From a virus (taxonomy: Duplodnaviria > Caudoviricetes): DNA of 64,000 nt. Position numbers and translations under genes: made by a program. The notes under the pieces are model-generated. The model did no database searches. It was not told the origin of the DNA and was given only the letters and a program-made list of their open reading frames with translations. Where the stretch lies: IMG/VR virus record IMGVR_UViG_3300010388_000214, positions 31,626 to 95,625 of that record, one strand, 5' to 3'. This document shows positions 2,184 through 35,072 of the stretch, piece after piece. Position 1 is the stretch's first letter. Every line of letters begins with the position of its first letter.

Positions 2184-2380
2184 TAGTTGCCTACGAATTC
2201 AACTACAGTGTCAGCTTCTTGGTACTCGACCATGTCAAGCTTTTCTTCAGTGATATCAAACTCAGGCCAGTAATCAGCATCCTCGTTACCCTGCGAGACG
2301 TGAAAGATTGCAAGAGCTTCGTCTTCACTGTCCGCCTGCACGGAATAGGTATTGCCAGATGTTATAAAGTATGTAGCCAT
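2183..2380 (-). CDS. acidic hypothetical protein (start MATYFIT)
   Basis: SD-like GAAGG before the ATG at 2380; A.s.eEA motif similar to 289..468. Confidence 0.7.
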   Translation of the reverse strand: MATYFITSGNTYSVQADSEDEALAIFHVSQGNEDADYWPEFDITEEKLDMVEYQEADTVVEFVGN

Positions 2381-3449: not shown

Positions 3450-3515
3450 GCCTTATCGTAACCTTTTTTATAACAGGTTGGTAACGGTCGGGGGCCGATC
3501 CCCGTTGGGGGTAGC

Positions 3516-4076
3516 CTATGAAGCACTACCCCGAACGATGACCCAGATAAGAGCTTGAGCAGTACGAGGTGTCAGACCAAACTCTCCTGCAACTTTACGC
3601 ACAGCACGAGACAGTTCTACATACTGAGACTGAGAGGGGGAGTCAGTTCCCAGGTTAGCTGCACGACACATCCAAATGTCAATAACTACAGCGTCTTTGT
3701 CACCTGCAATAGCACGAGCGAATGCATTAGTCTTTGGACCTTTGAGAGCGTCAAACCCTAAGTCAATGCTAGTCTGTGCCATTTTGTAGTTGTTAGGCAA
3801 ACCCTTTACCTCATGACCAAGCGAGAATGCAATAGCCTTAGAGATATTACTAGCCCAACGCTCACGAGGTGAGAATGCAGAGACAACGCTTGCACCAACT
3901 TCAAGTGTGGTGTTTAGGTTGCGAGCAACTTCTTCTGCAACTTCTTCTGCATCCCGATACCAGACACTAGCCTCTTCGACCTGACCGAGAGTAGCATTCA
4001 TGAGTAGGTTGCGATACATGCCAGTGTAGTTCTTGATACGGGTGGTTACTTCTGGCTTTACGATTGTGGTTGTCAT
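3516..4076 (-). CDS. phage protein, possibly HhH/DNA-glycosylase-like fold
   Basis: WY..A, SP...W..N, GPKT.AF, VVID.W and QA.IW motifs; the fold is a guess. Confidence 0.6.
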   Translation of the reverse strand: MTTTIVKPEVTTRIKNYTGMYRNLLMNATLGQVEEASVWYRDAEEVAEEVARNLNTTLEVGASVVSAFSPRERWASNISKAIAFSLGHEVKGLPNNYKMAQTSIDLGFDALKGPKTNAFARAIAGDKDAVVIDIWMCRAANLGTDSPSQSQYVELSRAVRKVAGEFGLTPRTAQALIWVIVRGSAS

Positions 4077-8962: not shown

Positions 8963-9025
8963 TTATCCACATAGTTATCCACAGGCGGCCCCTCATTTGC
9001 CAGGGTATGTCAAGGCAACACGCCG
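8963..9025. repeat. module C: two TTATCCACA, GCGGCCCC (flipped), TGTCAA, AACACGCCG
   Basis: direct sequence comparison with modules A and B. Confidence 0.8.
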
Positions 9026-9091
9026 ATGATGATAAGAATAGTATTGATCAGTAGCAAGGCTATACATACCCACCCTGCTACCCCACCTACC

Positions 9092-9217
9092 CTATCCAAG
9101 AGACCACACACCCAAGATGAATGCATAGAAGCCTAGCATTATCAAGAACATCATTCCTGTATAGACAATGCCACGAACAAATCCACGTACGAGATAGTAT
9201 AGCTTAGAGTGTTCCAT
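9092..9217 (-). CDS. 41-aa membrane protein
   Basis: manually translated; hydrophobic; coupled. Confidence 0.55.
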   Translation of the reverse strand: MEHSKLYYLVRGFVRGIVYTGMMFLIMLGFYAFILGVWSLG

Positions 9218-9429
9218 TAGAACTCCTTCGATTCAATGTGTTCCCATACTGCACCAACAAGACCACCAAGGCAAGAGACAGCAACTACACCAAGCATCCA
9301 AGTGATAGCAATCGGTGCCATACTCTGAGTGATAGGAGTGTAGTCAATGCTTGATGCCCAATCGAATGAGAAGGCAAAGCTTGTGATGAAGAGTGATGCT
9401 AGTACAATCATTAGTGCTACGAGTTTCAT
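9217..9429 (-). CDS. two-TM membrane protein, 70 aa
   Basis: two hydrophobic segments; SD AAGGA. Confidence 0.7.
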   Translation of the reverse strand: MKLVALMIVLASLFITSFAFSFDWASSIDYTPITQSMAPIAITWMLGVVAVSCLGGLVGAVWEHIESKEF

Positions 9430-9608
9430 TTTCTGTCCTTTGTTATTTCCTGATATATATATTCAATCACGACCCACGGACAATGTCAAGCGACACGCCG
9501 TGTGCTCACTAAAAAGTACCCCCCACCCAGTACTCAAATCATGTATCGTACATCTTTAAAAATTATTCAGATTTTCTGTAATTCTGATTTTCAAAATTTT
9601 TCAGATTT

Positions 9609-10352
9609 TTACTCAACAACGTTTTTACGGATCTCAGACAGAACCATCTCTGGCATCATAGACTGCTCTGAGTGCTGGTAGCGATAATCCAAAGTCTTGT
9701 TGCGGCCATAGATGTTTGGTGAGTTACTAGTCTCCTTAGTCAGAGCAAGTAGATTCTCGTTAAACATGTAACGCTTAAACACAACCTTCTTGTCAGTCAT
9801 GATCTCAAGGAAGAACAGTGGGTCATCCTCTTTGACTGAAAACTTTCGGGTAGTCTTAGGAATGTGGTAATCCAAGTTCCAAGAGCGATACCACTTACCA
9901 ATATTAAACTCTCCTGGTGACATACGTGCACCTTCCATTGGTGATACAGCAGGAAAGTATGGAGCTGTAAATCTAGCTACGACTGGTTCTGATGAAAAGA
10001 ACAACCATGATAGATTATAGATAACATCAATTTGGTCGGGGAAGCTAGAAGGTCTCTCATGATACATTCCTGCAATAGACTTTACATTCATACGAGGACT
10101 CTTTGCTGGGTCTGGTTCGTTCTCAAAGTAATAGTCTGGAATTTCAAATTCGTCATCGATAGCTGATCTAAATACAAACACATTGTCTAATGTATTTCGT
10201 GCAGCAGGACATTGCGACATAAGAGATCCAGGAATCTTCTCACGATGAAGGTTTGTATAAACATTCTCTGGTTTGCGATACAGCATAGCCATAGACTCTG
10301 TGCTTGGCATGTAGTTTGCTGGTGCCCAGTAGATCGTAATTTCTTCTGACAT
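9609..10352 (-). CDS. hypothetical phage protein, 247 aa
   Basis: long ORF; beta-rich; function not recognised. Confidence 0.75.
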   Translation of the reverse strand: MSEEITIYWAPANYMPSTESMAMLYRKPENVYTNLHREKIPGSLMSQCPAARNTLDNVFVFRSAIDDEFEIPDYYFENEPDPAKSPRMNVKSIAGMYHERPSSFPDQIDVIYNLSWLFFSSEPVVARFTAPYFPAVSPMEGARMSPGEFNIGKWYRSWNLDYHIPKTTRKFSVKEDDPLFFLEIMTDKKVVFKRYMFNENLLALTKETSNSPNIYGRNKTLDYRYQHSEQSMMPEMVLSEIRKNVVE

Positions 10353-10535
10353 TTATGGTAGCTTCAACTCGGGGGTAGACTTAATCAAGTTATAAGTCAA
10401 AGCCCATTTATTTATAAGCTTATAAGACACATGTAGATCCTTAGCGATCTGTCGAACTGTCTTGGTTTGTAGCTGTTCAGCTAGCCAGGTCTTATCCTGA
10501 TAGTATTTGACGTATCCGTCTTTCATTGTTTCCAT
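10353..10535 (-). CDS. small helix-turn-helix DNA-binding protein
   Basis: KTVRQIAKDLHVSYKLINKW HTH pattern; SD AAGGAG. Confidence 0.7.
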   Translation of the reverse strand: METMKDGYVKYYQDKTWLAEQLQTKTVRQIAKDLHVSYKLINKWALTYNLIKSTPELKLP

Positions 10536-10617
10536 ATTCTCTCCTTTATGGTTTGGTATCTAAATTTTATCAGACACTATTTCTTTTTGCAAGTACAGGT
10601 ATCTCCACACATAAACG

Positions 10618-10818
10618 TCACCACTTCCCCATAGGGCATACGGCCTTCTCTAACGTTGTTTTGAGCTTCATGTAACATCCACACTTACGACATTTTGTTA
10701 GACGCTTATCTAGCCACTCACAGCCTTTACAAATTTCTAAACGCTGCTCAATGAGTTCTCTATCTGATCTCGGTTGTGATGGATCAAACAGATCTGTAAA
10801 CTTTACGTCTTTGGCCAT
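10618..10818 (-). CDS. small Cys-rich protein (DUF6171-like)
   Basis: R..IC..C...C..CGC.M..K......CP.GKW. Confidence 0.7.
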   Translation of the reverse strand: MAKDVKFTDLFDPSQPRSDRELIEQRLEICKGCEWLDKRLTKCRKCGCYMKLKTTLEKAVCPMGKW

Positions 10819-10830
10819 ACATCTATTTTA

Positions 10831-10989
10831 TCACGTCTTAAGCATTGAGTTCAGATAATTCATTTCGTGCTCTGCACTAACAAAGCCAGTGCCTTCAGTG
10901 GTCTTACAGTCTACACAAAATTTAATAATCATGTATCCGCCATTGTGGCTATCGGTTTGACCTATTTTCCAATTATGTTTACAATCCAT
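10831..10989 (-). CDS. 52-aa protein (C.H.W...C..C)
   Basis: manually translated; leaderless after TGA-TATAGT. Confidence 0.5.
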   Translation of the reverse strand: MDCKHNWKIGQTDSHNGGYMIIKFCVDCKTTEGTGFVSAEHEMNYLNSMLKT

Positions 10990-11059
10990 AATCTACTATA
11001 TCAAATTTTCGACGGTATCAATCAGCTTGTCTGATTCCGAAGGAGGCATTGTCCACAAA

Positions 11060-11130
11060 AGGATAACTCCCCATAATCGGTCATAGTATTAAACCAATAT
11101 ATATCTGATCTATGCCGTATGAGGAGCTAT
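11060..11130 (-). ncRNA. putative structured sRNA 3
   Basis: promoter TTGACA(11161-66)/TACAAT(11137-42); long imperfect stem 11067-85 with 11110-26. Confidence 0.4.
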
Positions 11131-11172
11131 AGATATATTGTACACCCATTTGAAAAGGTTTGTCAAGGTTTG

Positions 11173-11243
11173 AAAGAAAAACCCCTAGCCGTAAATTAGA
11201 ATGTGAGATCTACGGTTAGGGGAGCTTGGTTTTCTTGACTGGG
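11173..11243 (-). ncRNA. putative ~70-nt sRNA 2
   Basis: TGA-TATAAT at 11250-58; 12-bp hairpin 11182-11222 followed by a U-tract. Confidence 0.5.
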
Positions 11244-11257
11244 ACTTCTATTATATC

Positions 11258-11412
11258 AAAAGAAAATCCCCCACCTGCCGCAGCCTCCGATGGGGGATCC
11301 AATAGGTCGTCGGCTTTCGCAGAGGTCTCTATTGTTACTCTTTGTGGGAAGGACTTCCTTCACCATGATGTGGCCTAGTAAACTACGCCGAGAAGGACCT
11401 TGTCTTCTCATT
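11258..11412 (-). ncRNA. putative ~150-nt structured sRNA 1
   Basis: TTGCAA-N17-TATAAT (11419-47); several nested helices; terminator 11266-98 with U-tract. Confidence 0.5.
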
Positions 11413-11480
11413 AATACGATTATAGCAAAGAAAATCTCCCCTTGCAAGCAGAGGGGGAGATCGAGACAATTCTATTGTAG

Positions 11481-11551
11481 CACCCCACCGAGGAATTGAA
11501 CCCCGTCCAACAGGTTTGGAATCTGTCATGCTGCCGTAACACTTGTGAGAT
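11481..11551 (-). tRNA. tRNA-Trp (CCA); 3' CCA not encoded
   Basis: acceptor ATCTCAC/GTGGGGT, anticodon loop TTCCAAA, T-arm CGGGG-TTCAATT-CCTCG, discriminator G. Confidence 0.85.
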
Positions 11552-11610
11552 AGACAACCTAGCCACCGTAGATCCTAAGATTTCCTGCGTAGCTAGGTCT
11601 TAACATATTA

Positions 11611-11639
11611 ATTATAGCAAATATTTTTACACATTGCAA
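11611..11639 (-). promoter_or_regulatory. promoter TTGCAA-N17-TATAAT for the tRNA unit
   Basis: consensus with extended TG. Confidence 0.75.
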
Positions 11640-11951
11640 TAACATGTAAAGAAAATCGCAAAAACTTTACATATCGCCTAACATGTCTTATGTCAAATGA
11701 AAGACAACTTTACTTTGTAGAAAACAAATGAAAGCTAAATGAGGTTTACTTTCATTTAATGCCTTATATAGTCGTCATAAAGTTGGTTAATGCCTGTTAT
11801 ATTCGTCATTATTCAACTATTCGGGATTTCCGAACAGTTCACTTATTCGGTTTTTCCGAACAACTCAAATCAGTACGTACCTTCCGAAAACCAGGAAAAG
11901 TTGGTGTCAAACCACAATAATTGGTTTAAATCGGAACGAACATTCTTATCT

Positions 11952-11989
11952 GTTACCATTTCGTTATCATTCTGTTACATATCTGTAAC
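11952..11989. repeat. four GT[T/A]A[C/T] pentamers at exact 11-bp period
   Basis: GTTAC-N6-GTTAT-N6-GTTAC-N6-GTAAC. Confidence 0.75.
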
Positions 11990-12158
11990 ATTTACCCATA
12001 TTCAAACCATATCTCGGATTCTGGGAGGTTAAGGTTTGAGGTTTGGGTATGTAATTCTCACCGCGAACTTTACGCCGTCGAGCTTTGCGATGCTTATTCA
12101 TCTTAGTTATCAACATGTTGTGGATAACTTTTAAAAAGGACACTATAATAGTAATATC

Positions 12159-12473
12159 ATGACAATTTCGGAATGGCAGGGGATTCTAGGTTTAATCATA
12201 GCAATATCAGCTGTAGCAGGAATTGTCTTTGCTATTCTCCGTTTCTATATCAGAGCATTTGCTAAACAAGAATTAGAAGACATCAGACACGAACTTAAGC
12301 CTAATAGTGGATCGTCTATGAAAGATCAGGTAACACGGCTAGAAGCAAATCAGAAAGTGATTACGGAAACTCAGAAAACAGACAGTGAAAGATTTGATCA
12401 CAAACTAGACAAGCTGGAAGATAAGGTCGACAAGATGTTCGAAATAATCCTTAAGCACTTTGGTAACAACTAA
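12159..12473 (+). CDS. membrane protein, N-terminal TM plus coiled coil (holin/antiholin-like)
   Basis: one TM segment; upstream of the endolysin. Confidence 0.7.
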   Translation: MTISEWQGILGLIIAISAVAGIVFAILRFYIRAFAKQELEDIRHELKPNSGSSMKDQVTRLEANQKVITETQKTDSERFDHKLDKLEDKVDKMFEIILKHFGNN

Positions 12474-12636
12474 TCCCTTATATATTAATATATATATACT
12501 AGATATCTTAGCTAGCTGTTATAGTTCTCTTATCAATTATTACAATTATACACACAAGTTCCTATGTCTTGATACCAAAACCTCATATTCTTTGATAACA
12601 TTTTGATAACGTTATGATTATGTTATAATTTTATAT

Positions 12637-12691
12637 AGCTACTACTTAGGTTTTCTCTCTCATACCCACTTACCTAGGTAGTAGCTTTTTT
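12637..12691 (+). ncRNA. putative ~55-nt hairpin sRNA with CU-rich loop
   Basis: TGT-TATAAT at 12621-29; 15-bp stem, 20-nt loop, U-tract. Confidence 0.55.
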
Positions 12692-12765
12692 AATGCCCTC
12701 CTGATTTCTTATTATTTAATGGTATAATTAAACTGATCTTGTTAAAGATCTAAGGAGAGTTTATT

Positions 12766-13560
12766 ATGAGTCAATTTCAAAACTGGCTAAATAGTGTTAA
12801 CGGTAAAGCCATTGAGATGGATAAGTCGTACGGAGCACAATGCTGGGACCTATGGTCACACTATGGAGTCAACATGCTTGGCGTTACATTCTGGAAAACA
12901 GGAACAAACGCTGGTGGGGGATGCCCACAACACTCAGGCTTCACATGTGGCCTGTGGAAGACATTTGATCGTTCAGGTCTAGGCGAATGGCTGACCCCTG
13001 TACAAGGTCCACCTCAGCGTGGAGACGTAGCTATTTGGGAGTGGGGTTCCCCTGCAGGTCCTAACAGCCACGTTGCCATTGTTGTAGAAGACCGTGGAAG
13101 CAACGTATACTGCATGACACAGAATCCTGGTGCTGCACACTACGCAAACCTTTCAAAGGCTGGTATTCTCGGATACCTTCGCCCAGACAACCAGTCCTTC
13201 TTTGATGGTCCTGGTGCTGGTTCAACTCCTGCTGCAACTGGAACAATTGCTGAACTAGCAGCTGCGGTTATCCGTGGTGAGTTTGGTAACGGTCCAGACC
13301 GTGTAGCAGCTCTTGGTGCAAACTATGATGCTGTTCAGGCAGAGGTTAACCGTATTCTAGGTGGTGGCTCAGCAGCTCCTGCTCCTGCACCAGTATCTAG
13401 CGGTACACAGCACGTCGTAGTTCCAGGTGATACACTCTGGGATTTGAGTGCTGCATACCTCGGAGATCCAACTAGATACATGGAGATCTTCAATGCGTCA
13501 AACTTTAGTTCTGGAAATCCAAGCTTGATTTATCCAGGAGAAATCGCTATTATTCCTTAA
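12766..13560 (+). CDS. endolysin: CHAP + CW_7 (Cpl-7) + LysM
   Basis: YGAQCWDL and HVAIV...QN; A.AVIRGEFGNG.DR...L; HVVVPGDTLW...LIYPG. Confidence 0.9.
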   Translation: MSQFQNWLNSVNGKAIEMDKSYGAQCWDLWSHYGVNMLGVTFWKTGTNAGGGCPQHSGFTCGLWKTFDRSGLGEWLTPVQGPPQRGDVAIWEWGSPAGPNSHVAIVVEDRGSNVYCMTQNPGAAHYANLSKAGILGYLRPDNQSFFDGPGAGSTPAATGTIAELAAAVIRGEFGNGPDRVAALGANYDAVQAEVNRILGGGSAAPAPAPVSSGTQHVVVPGDTLWDLSAAYLGDPTRYMEIFNASNFSSGNPSLIYPGEIAIIP

Positions 13561-13576
13561 GGAGGAGAGAAAACAT

Positions 13577-14083
13577 ATGGAAAAGACACACTTCGTTAAG
13601 CAGGTATTTGACTACCTGTACCCGAGTAAAAACCGTGTAATCGCAGCTGTTGCGTTTGTTCGCACATTCAAGCAGGCAATTACTGGTACATCTGTAGTTG
13701 GTGGATCTGGATTGATCGCTATCAACGCAGGAGACATTGCAAACCTTAACTGGGAAGTTGTTATGTACACAGCAATTGCTGTAGTTCTAACAGCTATCAT
13801 TGCAGGTGCATCAGCTTTTGATGACGTATCTCGCAATGGTCTAAACAGCAAGTACATGGATGCGGCAACAACTCCAGAGCCTTCTGTTATTGTAGACCCA
13901 GCAGTGGTCAAGCAGTTATTGCGTCCAGCATCTTTTGTTCCTGCACCTGCAGAAGCACCAAAGGCTGCAGCTAAGCCAGCTACCCGTAAAAAGGCAACAC
14001 CAAAGGCTACAGCAGCAGCTAACAAGGTTGTAGAGAACACCTTGAAGGCTGACCAGGCTCCAGCAGTTGAAGAGCCAATGTAA
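13577..14083 (+). CDS. putative holin (r1t-like) with Ala/Lys/Pro-rich tail
   Basis: AFVRTFKQA plus hydrophobic segments; directly after the lysin; SD AAGGAGG. Confidence 0.65.
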   Translation: MEKTHFVKQVFDYLYPSKNRVIAAVAFVRTFKQAITGTSVVGGSGLIAINAGDIANLNWEVVMYTAIAVVLTAIIAGASAFDDVSRNGLNSKYMDAATTPEPSVIVDPAVVKQLLRPASFVPAPAEAPKAAAKPATRKKATPKATAAANKVVENTLKADQAPAVEEPM

Positions 14084-33965: not shown

Positions 33966-35072
33966 ATGTCGGAAGAAATTATTAAAAACAACCCTTCAAA
34001 TGCAACTTATCCTAACGCGGATGGTTCAGCATTTGCAGGTGGTATTGGTGGTGTTACAGACCCTGCCTTTGCATACCTCGGTAACACCGAAGGTGATGCA
34101 GAACTCGGACTCACAACTGGTCCTAACGCAGTCAACCCATCCTCTACCGCAAACCCCCGTTACGAAGGTGCTGGTATCCTGCGTCCCGAACAGGCTCGTC
34201 GATTCATCGATTACGTCTGGGACGCTACCACTCTTGCCAACGACGGTCGCCGCGTGACTATGCGTGCTAACACTATGGAACTTGAAAAGGTTAACGTAGG
34301 TGAGCGTGTTGTTCGTGCTGCAAACCAGGGTGACGCTAGCTTTACAAACGCTGGTGCCACCTTCTCTAAGGTTGAACTAACCACCAAGAAACTACGTCTT
34401 GACTGGGAAGTTTCAGCTGAAGCACTCGAAGACAATATTGAAGGAGGTGCTCTTGAGGACCACTTGGTTCGTCTCATGACCACCGCTTTCGGTAACGACA
34501 TCGAGGACCTAGCAATTAACGGTGACACCGCACAGTCTGGTGACGCATTCCTCGGCATTATGGACGGCTTTATTGCCCGTGCAGATGGCGATGGCTTTGC
34601 TCACGAGGCAGTCGTAAGTCAGGTTGACGCAAACTGGACTGTCGATGATATGCAGAAGCTTATCCTCGCACTTCCACGTAAGTACCGTGCACTCCAGACA
34701 GGACTCAAGTTCTATGCTGGTACCGATACTTTTGCAAACATCGTTAAGAACAATGGTACCGTATTCGACAGCATCGGTTCAACCGAGTCTGCTCGTGGTT
34801 CCTACTTCGGCGGTGTCGACCAGACCATCGGTGGTGCACGTCAGACTCGTGTACTTGGTGTTCCAGTCCTCGAAGTTCCTTACTACCCTGCAGAGTATGT
34901 AGACCTTACATTCCCTCAGAACCGTATTTGGGGCTTCCAGCGTGACATCACAGTTAACCGTTTCTACGTTCCTAAGAAGGACACAATCGAGTACACCGTA
35001 TTCGTTCGATTCGGAATTAACTGGGAAGAGCAGGACGCTGTAGCTTACGCAACTAAGCCAGTAGCATCCTAA
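33966..35072 (+). CDS. major capsid protein
   Basis: position; GILRPEQA..FID, LEDNIEG, EDLAINGD; SD GGAGG. Confidence 0.9.
   Translation: MSEEIIKNNPSNATYPNADGSAFAGGIGGVTDPAFAYLGNTEGDAELGLTTGPNAVNPSSTANPRYEGAGILRPEQARRFIDYVWDATTLANDGRRVTMRANTMELEKVNVGERVVRAANQGDASFTNAGATFSKVELTTKKLRLDWEVSAEALEDNIEGGALEDHLVRLMTTAFGNDIEDLAINGDTAQSGDAFLGIMDGFIARADGDGFAHEAVVSQVDANWTVDDMQKLILALPRKYRALQTGLKFYAGTDTFANIVKNNGTVFDSIGSTESARGSYFGGVDQTIGGARQTRVLGVPVLEVPYYPAEYVDLTFPQNRIWGFQRDITVNRFYVPKKDTIEYTVFVRFGINWEEQDAVAYATKPVAS

Follow-up and report, generated by a model that had tools for sequence, protein, structure and literature searches.

A probable array of small-RNA cassettes around tRNA-Trp at the start of the leftward early arm of an uncultured phage

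The leftward early arm of an uncultured phage opens with non-coding DNA that is, in our assessment and with somewhat better than even confidence, an array of four independently promoted small-RNA cassettes. The phage is represented by a 95,625-base virus entry in IMG/VR (IMGVR_UViG_3300010388_000214) with an estimated completeness of 88%, and the part of that record analysed here, a stretch of 64,000 nucleotides (nt), is referred to as the window. Four tandem minus-strand units lie within positions 11055-11639 of the window, at the start of the arm (Table 1). The first runs from promoter P1 through a leader hairpin and tRNA-Trp to terminator T1; the second is made up of P2, RNA2 and T2 and the third of P3, RNA3 and T3, while in the fourth P4 is followed by the RNA4 hairpin with its U-rich tail. 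The case for the array is built from promoter and terminator signals, conservation, covariation, the non-coding character of the units and the shuffling of modules among relatives. On this evidence the units look like real RNA genes that have been kept, lost and reshuffled in related phages, and RNA2, RNA3 and RNA4 are three candidate new RNA families.

The comparisons draw on contigs that carry the tRNA: one from IMG/VR found with an exact 28-mer (L003), a set of metagenome contigs found with a 24-mer (L152-L159, among which L153 and L159 are alike, as are L156 and L158) and one found with words taken from P4 (L180). Three more distant phages (L005, L006 and L007) carry RNA3. Across twelve related contigs the units are conserved, constrained in structure and, to judge from their sequences, non-coding. 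Because the sequence sets are small and related, the shuffle figures given below are not probabilities.

A preliminary description of this DNA had proposed four minus-strand promoters, each above a short structured segment, with the first three terminators overlapping or abutting the next promoter (T1/P2, T2/P3 and T3/P4) and with the TTGCAA at 11447-11442 inside the hairpin of T1, and each of these elements was borne out. A consensus scan of 9000-14000 gave 20 promoter-like sites (12.2 +/- 3.4 in shuffles), and P4, P1 and P2 are the top three such sites on the minus strand. P3 is a conserved extended -10: TGnTAnnnT lies 6-8 nt upstream of CCCAGTCAAG, the sequence near the predicted start of RNA3, in all six copies of that RNA. 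The -35 TTGnnA and the TGnTATAAT of P1 are retained in the related contigs inspected, TGTTATAAT stands at the position of P2 in L155 and L157, and P4 recurs in most relatives as TTGACAAACCTT...GTGTACA(A/C)T, with a -35 of TTGCCA in L003 and of TTGACT in L155 and L157. The segments beneath the promoters are structured, with fold z scores of -2.9 for the leader, -3.2 for RNA2 (150 nt, -54.1 kcal/mol, one of 200 shuffles as good), -3.25 for RNA3 (-20.1 kcal/mol, none of 200 as good) and -4.0 for RNA4 (-27.7 kcal/mol, again none of 200); further folding of RNA3 gave a z of -4.5 beside that of -3.25.

The joints between units are compact. The TTGCAA that forms the -35 of P2 is located in the loop of T1, the U-tract of T2 extends into the -10 of P3, and that of T3 stops 5 nt before the -35 of P4. 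A simple terminator scan detected T1 only; T2 and T3, which have larger loops, were recognised by folding. The T1 region alone folds weakly (z -1.4, 18 of 200 shuffles as good), and its hairpin is identical in L155 and L157. The tails of the three terminators are nearly the same 13 bases, GG(A/G)G(A/T)TTTTCTTT; with at most one mismatch, the 13-nt tail GGGGATTTTCTTT is found three times, and the cluster holds all the copies in the 95.6-kb record. Terminator and promoter do not always overlap: L157 has 20 additional nt and a separate -35 between T1 and P2, and the overlap is therefore not essential.

In RNA2 the base changes follow the helices of the predicted fold. Helix H1 occurs with five different stems, in which 30 of 30 cells are paired and five of the six pairs have changed on both sides, around an 8-nt loop that is invariant in five distinct sequences; none of 500 shuffles reaches its covariation score. 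Within the close pair L152/L154 the loop-closing pair of H1 is double-changed, from G-C to A-T. Helices H2 and H3 have 96.9% of their cells paired and double changes at four of 13 pairs, and the 3' domain, compared in four sequences, has them at six of 20 predicted pairs. The H2-H3 core is present in eight of the 11 tRNA-bearing contigs. A search of IMG/VR with a two-motif RNA2 pattern returned 38 matches, all unrelated-looking by inspection, 18 of which are one recurrent 72-nt G+C-rich stretch that is coding in appearance.

RNA3 is conserved in another manner. CCCAGTCAAG is invariant in all six copies (the window, L155, L157, L005, L006 and L007), each of which has an extended -10 in front and ends in a hairpin with a U-rich tail, and the terminators vary, with at least three unrelated hairpins among the six. 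The window, L155 and L157 have a short form and L005-L007 a long form with GGAAACCAGC; a pattern search for the long form gave four matches, three of them real and one a chance match in a coding region. In the predicted fold CCCAGTCAAG is unpaired in four of the six copies, and six of its bases pair with the tail in L155 and L157. Since an unpaired, invariant 5' end is followed by an exchangeable terminator, the predicted anatomy of RNA3 is that of a base-pairing small RNA (sRNA) with a 5' seed.

Targets of this seed were sought in the phage by word search. Stretches complementary to the 5' end of RNA3 over 11-12 nt were found at 34396-34407 (+) of the window, in a capsid-like open reading frame (ORF), and at 2352-2363 (+) of the whole record (G000); both genes encode the peptide LDWE there, and LDWE is conserved. 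The capsid mRNA is not supported as a target of RNA3: the site is kept in one relative (G002) and has a synonymous mismatch in another (G003), and a third record has no such gene. We do not count this site as support because it is broken in one RNA3-bearing relative and because the word encodes the conserved LDWE.

A second pairing, between the leader and RNA3 hairpins, had been suggested from sequence that the two share on opposite strands. Their complementarity over 10 nt (GATCTACGGT against ACCGTAGATC) is real; mutual pairing is within chance and unconserved, given that in 152 of 1000 shuffles two of the four RNAs are complementary over 9 nt or more and that the same leader occurs in L157 with a different RNA3 terminator and in L180 without RNA3. 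Aligned directly, the two hairpins agree in 19 of 48 columns.

RNA4 was found in 10 of the 11 contigs, the eleventh stopping short of the site. Its three versions, type A (window, L003, L155 and L157), type B (L152, L153/L159 and L156/L158) and type C (L180), are the same in shape and have several compensated pairs, as seen in five of 11 predicted pairs and in pair ladders. An exact search with a 17-mer from one arm matched L003 only. The sense strand folds better than the antisense in nine of nine contigs and the stems include G-T pairs, so that the constraint acts on the RNA of the minus strand. Type A ends with a U-rich tail and type B, without a U-tract, abuts the -10 of the first gene; for this reason we propose that RNA4 may differ in nature between phages, as either a short hairpin RNA or the 5' leader of an early mRNA. 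The earlier view of a dedicated sRNA cluster is upheld as far as it concerns non-coding, structured units around a tRNA, each with its own predicted promoter and with compensatory changes in relatives, and is less secure for RNA4, which may be an early-mRNA leader.

The tRNA-Trp of unit 1 has a low Rfam score; its anticodon stem contains one A-C mismatch, and its CCA end is not encoded. All 72 nt of the gene are the same in 10 of 10 contigs, though 24 of them were the search word, and its flanks in relatives are only 70-90% alike. The leader hairpin is likewise present in 10 of 10 contigs, in six sequence versions unrelated to each other, and the version of the window is unchanged in L157 and nearly unchanged in L180. 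The last is a more distant relative, whose diverged tRNA-Trp (3468-3539, minus strand) has compensated acceptor and T stems. By the covariance models of Rfam, tRNA-Trp alone is recognised here: with Rfam 15, a search of 10900-11800 at E values up to 10 gave, the tRNA aside, only chance-level matches far below gathering scores, and searches of L152, L153, L154 and L157 (E up to 1) matched the tRNA alone and no family for RNA2, RNA3 or RNA4. The sole blastn match to cultured phages is 54 nt of the tRNA (11491-11544, minus strand), at 85% identity to four Methylophilales phages (Melnitz) in which that stretch is annotated as a hypothetical protein.

The set of modules differs from one relative to the next. 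In the window, L155 and L157 a separate promoter precedes RNA2; it is fused directly to the 3' end of the tRNA in L153 and L159, with neither terminator nor promoter between; and in L152, L154 and L180, H1 has been split off as the tRNA terminator and a longer RNA2 follows behind a promoter of its own. L003 keeps the 3' domain of RNA2 only, and L155 and L157 keep only the 5' half, with a different terminator. RNA3 is missing from eight of the 11 tRNA-bearing contigs. The window and L005 share a 25-nt joint, GGGGATTTTCTTTTGATATAATAGA, without a single difference, although the units that flank it are not the same, and the module map shows that insertions, deletions and swaps among the relatives begin and end at terminator-promoter cassettes.

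The site itself is plastic over a wider range of phages. The four-cysteine early protein of 66 amino acids (aa) encoded 3' of the cluster has at least 573 relatives in IMG/VR, and at the 120 loci that combine its gene with the neighbouring 104-aa gene the two are always divergent and separated by 48 to 2546 nt, a range that marks the gap as an insertion hot spot. Eight early-gene relatives were inspected, and none has a tRNA-RNA cluster upstream of the 66-aa gene; four of the eight (L069, L090, L093 and L123) have about 160-380 nt of non-coding DNA there, in which a TGnTAnnnT-type box precedes the ATG by a few nt. Because the inspected loci lack the cluster and the gap is variable, we regard the cluster as an accessory expansion of a plastic site.

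Table 1. Elements of the cluster and the first early genes 3' of it, with positions in the window.
Feature	Position	Strand	Remarks
P1	11611..11639	-	TTGCAA, 17 nt, TGc-TATAAT; consensus scan 10/12, TG
tRNA 5' leader	11552..11604	-	hairpin at about 11556-11599; fold -18.9 kcal/mol, z -2.9
tRNA-Trp (anticodon CCA)	11480..11551	-	ARAGORN; Rfam tRNA (RF00005), 34.2 bits against a gathering score of 29
T1	11427..11462	-	terminator hairpin and U-tract; loop contains the -35 of P2
P2 (RNA2 promoter)	11419..11447	-	TTGCAA, 17 nt, TGc-TATAAT; consensus scan 10/12, TG
RNA2 (~150 nt)	11257..11412	-	predicted five-helix fold; covariation
RNA2 H1	11390-11409	-	6-bp stem, invariant loop ACAAGGTC
RNA2 H2	11372-11389	-	followed by linker ACATCA
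RNA2 H3	11345-11365	-	GAAGG-AAGT-CCTTC
RNA2 3' domain	11263-11344	-	AAGAGTAACA, stem with GAAA-loop hairpin, T2
T2	11266-11300	-	RNA2 terminator; loop word GCTGCGGCAGG
P3	11250..11258	-	extended -10 alone, TGATATAAT, without -35; overlaps the T2 U-tract
RNA3 (~70 nt)	11172..11244	-	5' CCCAGTCAAGAAAACCAAGC (11224-11243), then T3
T3	11182-11222	-	RNA3 terminator; hairpin, with U-tract to 11172
P4	11137..11166	-	TTGACA, 18 nt, TACAAT; consensus scan 11/12
RNA4	11055..11130	-	bulged hairpin of ~21 bp (11063-11130), U-rich tail
Small hairpin, loop ACAAG	11013..11039	-	between RNA4 and the first gene; CAGACAAGCTG elsewhere in L157 only
52-aa ORF, leaderless-type start	10831-10989, ATG 10989	-	TGATATAGT (10995-11003), then 5 nt, ATG
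66-aa four-cysteine early protein, leaderless-type start	10618-10818, ATG 10818	-	TGATAAAAT (10825-10833), 6 nt, ATG

The two genes that follow the cluster, of 52 and 66 codons, have no Shine-Dalgarno sequence, and the TGA stop of the 52-aa ORF doubles as the TG of the extended -10 of the 66-aa gene. L090 encodes a similar C-terminal peptide upstream of its 66-aa gene, in a comparison made by eye only. Five nt past the stop of the 66-aa gene lies an 11-codon cysteine-rich micro-ORF, MCGDTCTCKKK (window 10577-10612, minus strand), and similar micro-ORFs are found at the same place in L003, L153, L156 and L157. On the other side of the cluster, upstream of P1, the divergent control region contains two TTCGG-N5-CCGAA palindromes (11820-11860) and a related half-site (11873-11890). 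The palindromes look like operators, and relatives carry other repeated words in this region (TTCGGCGG and GGAACGAACGTAC).

Transcription diverges near 12000-12150, and the rightward arm carries lysis and structural genes (endolysin, tail fibre, portal, protease). The structural genes resemble those of Streptomyces siphophages; for the portal, the top cultured relatives are Streptomyces phages with 46-50% identity. Outside the window, at G000:C1:13671-13844, the record has a WhiB-like gene (PF02467, 43.9 bits against a cut-off of 23.6). WhiB serves as an actinophage marker in freshwater surveys, according to the part of PMC10914622 available to us. The four best genome matches of the WhiB-like protein (61-76% identity) are contigs of metagenome-assembled genomes (MAGs) labelled Methylococcus, Chitinophagaceae, Polynucleobacter and Aquiluna; these are probably phage contigs that were binned by mistake, and no host call is made from them. 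Across the whole record, 25 starts have TGnTAnnnT placed 4-9 nt before the ATG or GTG of an ORF with 40 aa or more, whereas 20 shuffles gave a mean of 5.25. Those in the window include 10818, 10989, 14149, 25052, 38725, 52300 and 54750, and long listed ORFs begin at several of them (14149, 25052 and 52300). Because of these starts, and because the two genes 3' of the cluster lack a Shine-Dalgarno sequence, it is probable that many genes of the phage have leaderless mRNAs, with a separate extended -10 promoter for each. Leaderless mRNAs are frequent in Actinobacteria. The WhiB-like protein and the approximately 25 leaderless-looking starts indicate that the phage is probably an actinophage.

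We also considered RNA2 and RNA3 as mimics of the 3' end of 16S rRNA. Compared with the last 75 nt of the E. coli 16S, the two RNAs have eight common 7-mers against 2.1 in shuffles (p 0.015), several 7-9-mers are common to the RNAs and this tail, and the tail is the best of 294 16S windows. The idea was rejected when the signal was lost against actinobacterial 16S: with 16S sequences from genomes of the family of the Aquiluna-labelled MAG, an actinobacterium, the RNAs of the window have 4 common words against 1.8-2.0 (p 0.14-0.19), and with the same sequences the signal is nil in L003, L152, L153, L155 and L156.

Four RNA libraries yielded contigs from this region. A 153-nt contig of library X18 covers 11469-11621, contigs of X7 and X8 cover 10811-11213 and 10745-11205, and those of X17 cover 10778-10936 and 11891-12121. 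Positions 11248-11463 are uncovered in the four libraries, and as contigs cannot show absence this says nothing on RNA2.

Several points weigh against an array of independently promoted RNA genes. The X18 contig reaches past the -10 of P1 and so is not a clean P1 transcript; the X7 and X8 contigs both start inside T3; and the libraries yielded contigs only, which cannot show transcript ends. Promoter recognition is assumed from consensus alone. Type-B RNA4 has no U-tract and hence does not by itself make up a complete sRNA gene, and the RNA3 seed has no convincing conserved target among the phage genes. In addition, each comparison covers few sequences (4-7 distinct ones) that are close relatives, a situation in which shuffle controls can overstate support.

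Every unit is oriented towards the early genes, and the elements might therefore be read as cis-acting leaders of the early operon, with attenuation, processive antitermination or promoter occlusion tuning the leaderless genes. The way in which type B RNA4 abuts the -10 of the first gene with no U-tract is in keeping with this, as are the position of RNA3 in L005-L007, immediately upstream of the first gene's promoter, and the X7 and X8 contigs, which extend from T3 across P4 and RNA4 into the ORFs. The downstream genes are difficult to accommodate, however: each has its own -10 box 5-7 nt before the ATG, so that read-through copies would be leadered and untranslatable. Moreover, T2 and T3 are strong hairpins with U-tracts, the eight inspected early-gene relatives have no such elements upstream while the gap at the 120 loci runs from 48 to 2546 nt, and termination alone does not explain why RNA2 has invariant loops or RNA3 an invariant 5' end. 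We think it unlikely that cis-acting leaders account for the cluster.

A more restricted role would be left to the RNAs if nothing but the terminator-promoter joints mattered and the cargo were passenger DNA with no RNA function beyond the tRNA. The three terminator tails that fit GGGGATTTTCTTT, the 25-nt joint found between different neighbours in the window and L005, and the mosaic module content are what such an arrangement would produce. A precedent exists in the PeSL cassettes of T4-type phages, in which a sigma-70-like early promoter combined with a stem-loop terminator mediates shuffling, as described in the available portions of PMC2839356 and PMC4122927. The cargo of the present cluster nevertheless has compensatory changes and invariant loops, which are not expected of neutral passengers, and the fold of RNA4 is strand-specific; that the joints alone are functional is, in our view, quite improbable. 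A role for the hairpins as DNA, in a replication origin or as protein-binding palindromes of the divergent early control region, is very improbable: the cluster does sit between divergent arms with the TTCGG-N5-CCGAA palindromes just upstream, but the stem G-T pairs work on the sense strand only, the sense fold is the more stable in nine of nine RNA4 copies, and the promoter and U-tract signals are found in one orientation only.

It is scarcely credible that RNA2 serves as the leaderless message of a 51-aa peptide (MRRQGPS...), whose frame was noted in the preliminary description; its ATG does lie 7 nt past TGCTATAAT, an arrangement that the phage uses for real genes, but the frame is not conserved, with ATA in place of the start codon in L155 and L157, an in-frame stop after nine codons in L153 and a 1-nt frame shift in L155 and L157 that results from the spacing between conserved RNA2 blocks (42, 45 and 46 nt), and conservation tracks the helices rather than the codons.

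If the cluster is an array of independent RNA genes, as we favour, the following scheme would apply, in which transcription, processing and all functions are proposals. Upon entry of the DNA, the sigma-70-type RNA polymerase of the host would transcribe all four units at once. In unit 1 the leader hairpin of the precursor would be cut away and tRNA-Trp freed. RNA2 would present its invariant loops (ACAAGGTC, and AAGT within GAAGGAAGTCC) to a protein or to another RNA; action via the loops is most likely, since the stems drift while the two loop words stay invariant. RNA3 would base-pair through its invariant 5' end (CCCAGTCAAG...). In unit 4 a bulged hairpin would form at the 5' end of the P4 transcript, as a hairpin RNA in type A or a protective mRNA leader in type B, and RNA4 would protect or regulate that transcript. 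Each unit would require a promoter exactly at its 5' end and a terminator against upstream read-through, and the tightness of the terminator-promoter joints would follow from the leaderless state of the mRNAs, which makes read-through copies untranslatable. Similar joints would double as recombination points, giving rise to the different module sets and fusions among relatives; the mosaicism suggests this.

A broader reading of the locus is possible but rather doubtful. It would be an RNA-only hyperplastic region from which freshwater actinophages draw early RNAs to take over the host or to counter its defences: RNA2 as a decoy or sponge that displays its pair of invariant loops to a protein of host or phage, RNA3 as a 5'-seed sRNA against host messages, tRNA-Trp as a replacement for a scarce or attacked host tRNA and RNA4 as a guard of the early leaderless operon, with compact joints that let phages trade RNA genes in the way that PeSLs allow ORFs to be exchanged among T4-type phages.

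The cluster can be placed as a variant among phage sRNA genes, stable RNAs linked to tRNAs and PeSL-like cassettes, all of them known. Phage T4 has small stable RNAs (species 1 and 2) beside its tRNA genes, cut from the tRNA precursor. Like them, the RNAs described here are short, structured and adjoin a phage tRNA gene; unlike them, they mostly come with a separate promoter and terminator for each unit, and the sequences are unrelated, Rfam recognising the tRNA only. The sRNA of Shiga-toxin phage and the Pas sRNAs of prophages are reportedly base-pairing sRNAs with a seed and an intrinsic terminator. RNA3 would resemble them in its own predicted promoter, invariant unpaired end and Rho-independent terminator, with the difference that RNA3 is known here from sequence alone. 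The presumed host phylum is not known to have Hfq. The morons of lambdoid phages are accessory units with their own promoter and terminator that lie between conserved genes; the present units differ in carrying RNA as cargo and in being inserted in the early control region.

The likeness to PeSL cassettes, as far as the available portions of the two papers describe them, lies in compact composites of promoter and stem-loop terminator, set in a plastic early region, at which relatives differ by insertions, deletions and swaps. The differences, within the same limits, are that the cargo here consists of non-coding RNAs and a tRNA where that of PeSLs consists of small ORFs, that the phage is siphovirus-like and carries WhiB, not of the T4 type, and that, where PeSLs are repeated cassettes, the recurring stretches here span only 13-25 nt. 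That the joints of the present cluster recombine is, moreover, deduced from mosaicism. Among the entries listed by literature searches there was no paper on a phage RNA cluster of this kind.

Little is known of phage small RNAs beyond some model phages and, as far as we know, next to nothing of those in actinophages. The locus adds three candidate RNA families with covariation support and an instance of RNA-gene modules that shuffle at terminator-promoter joints, in a phage whose early genes appear to be leaderless. The compact promoter-terminator joints may suit expression design in actinobacterial hosts. If the RNAs act on the host, they would be entry points to RNA-based takeover or counter-defence in Actinobacteria.

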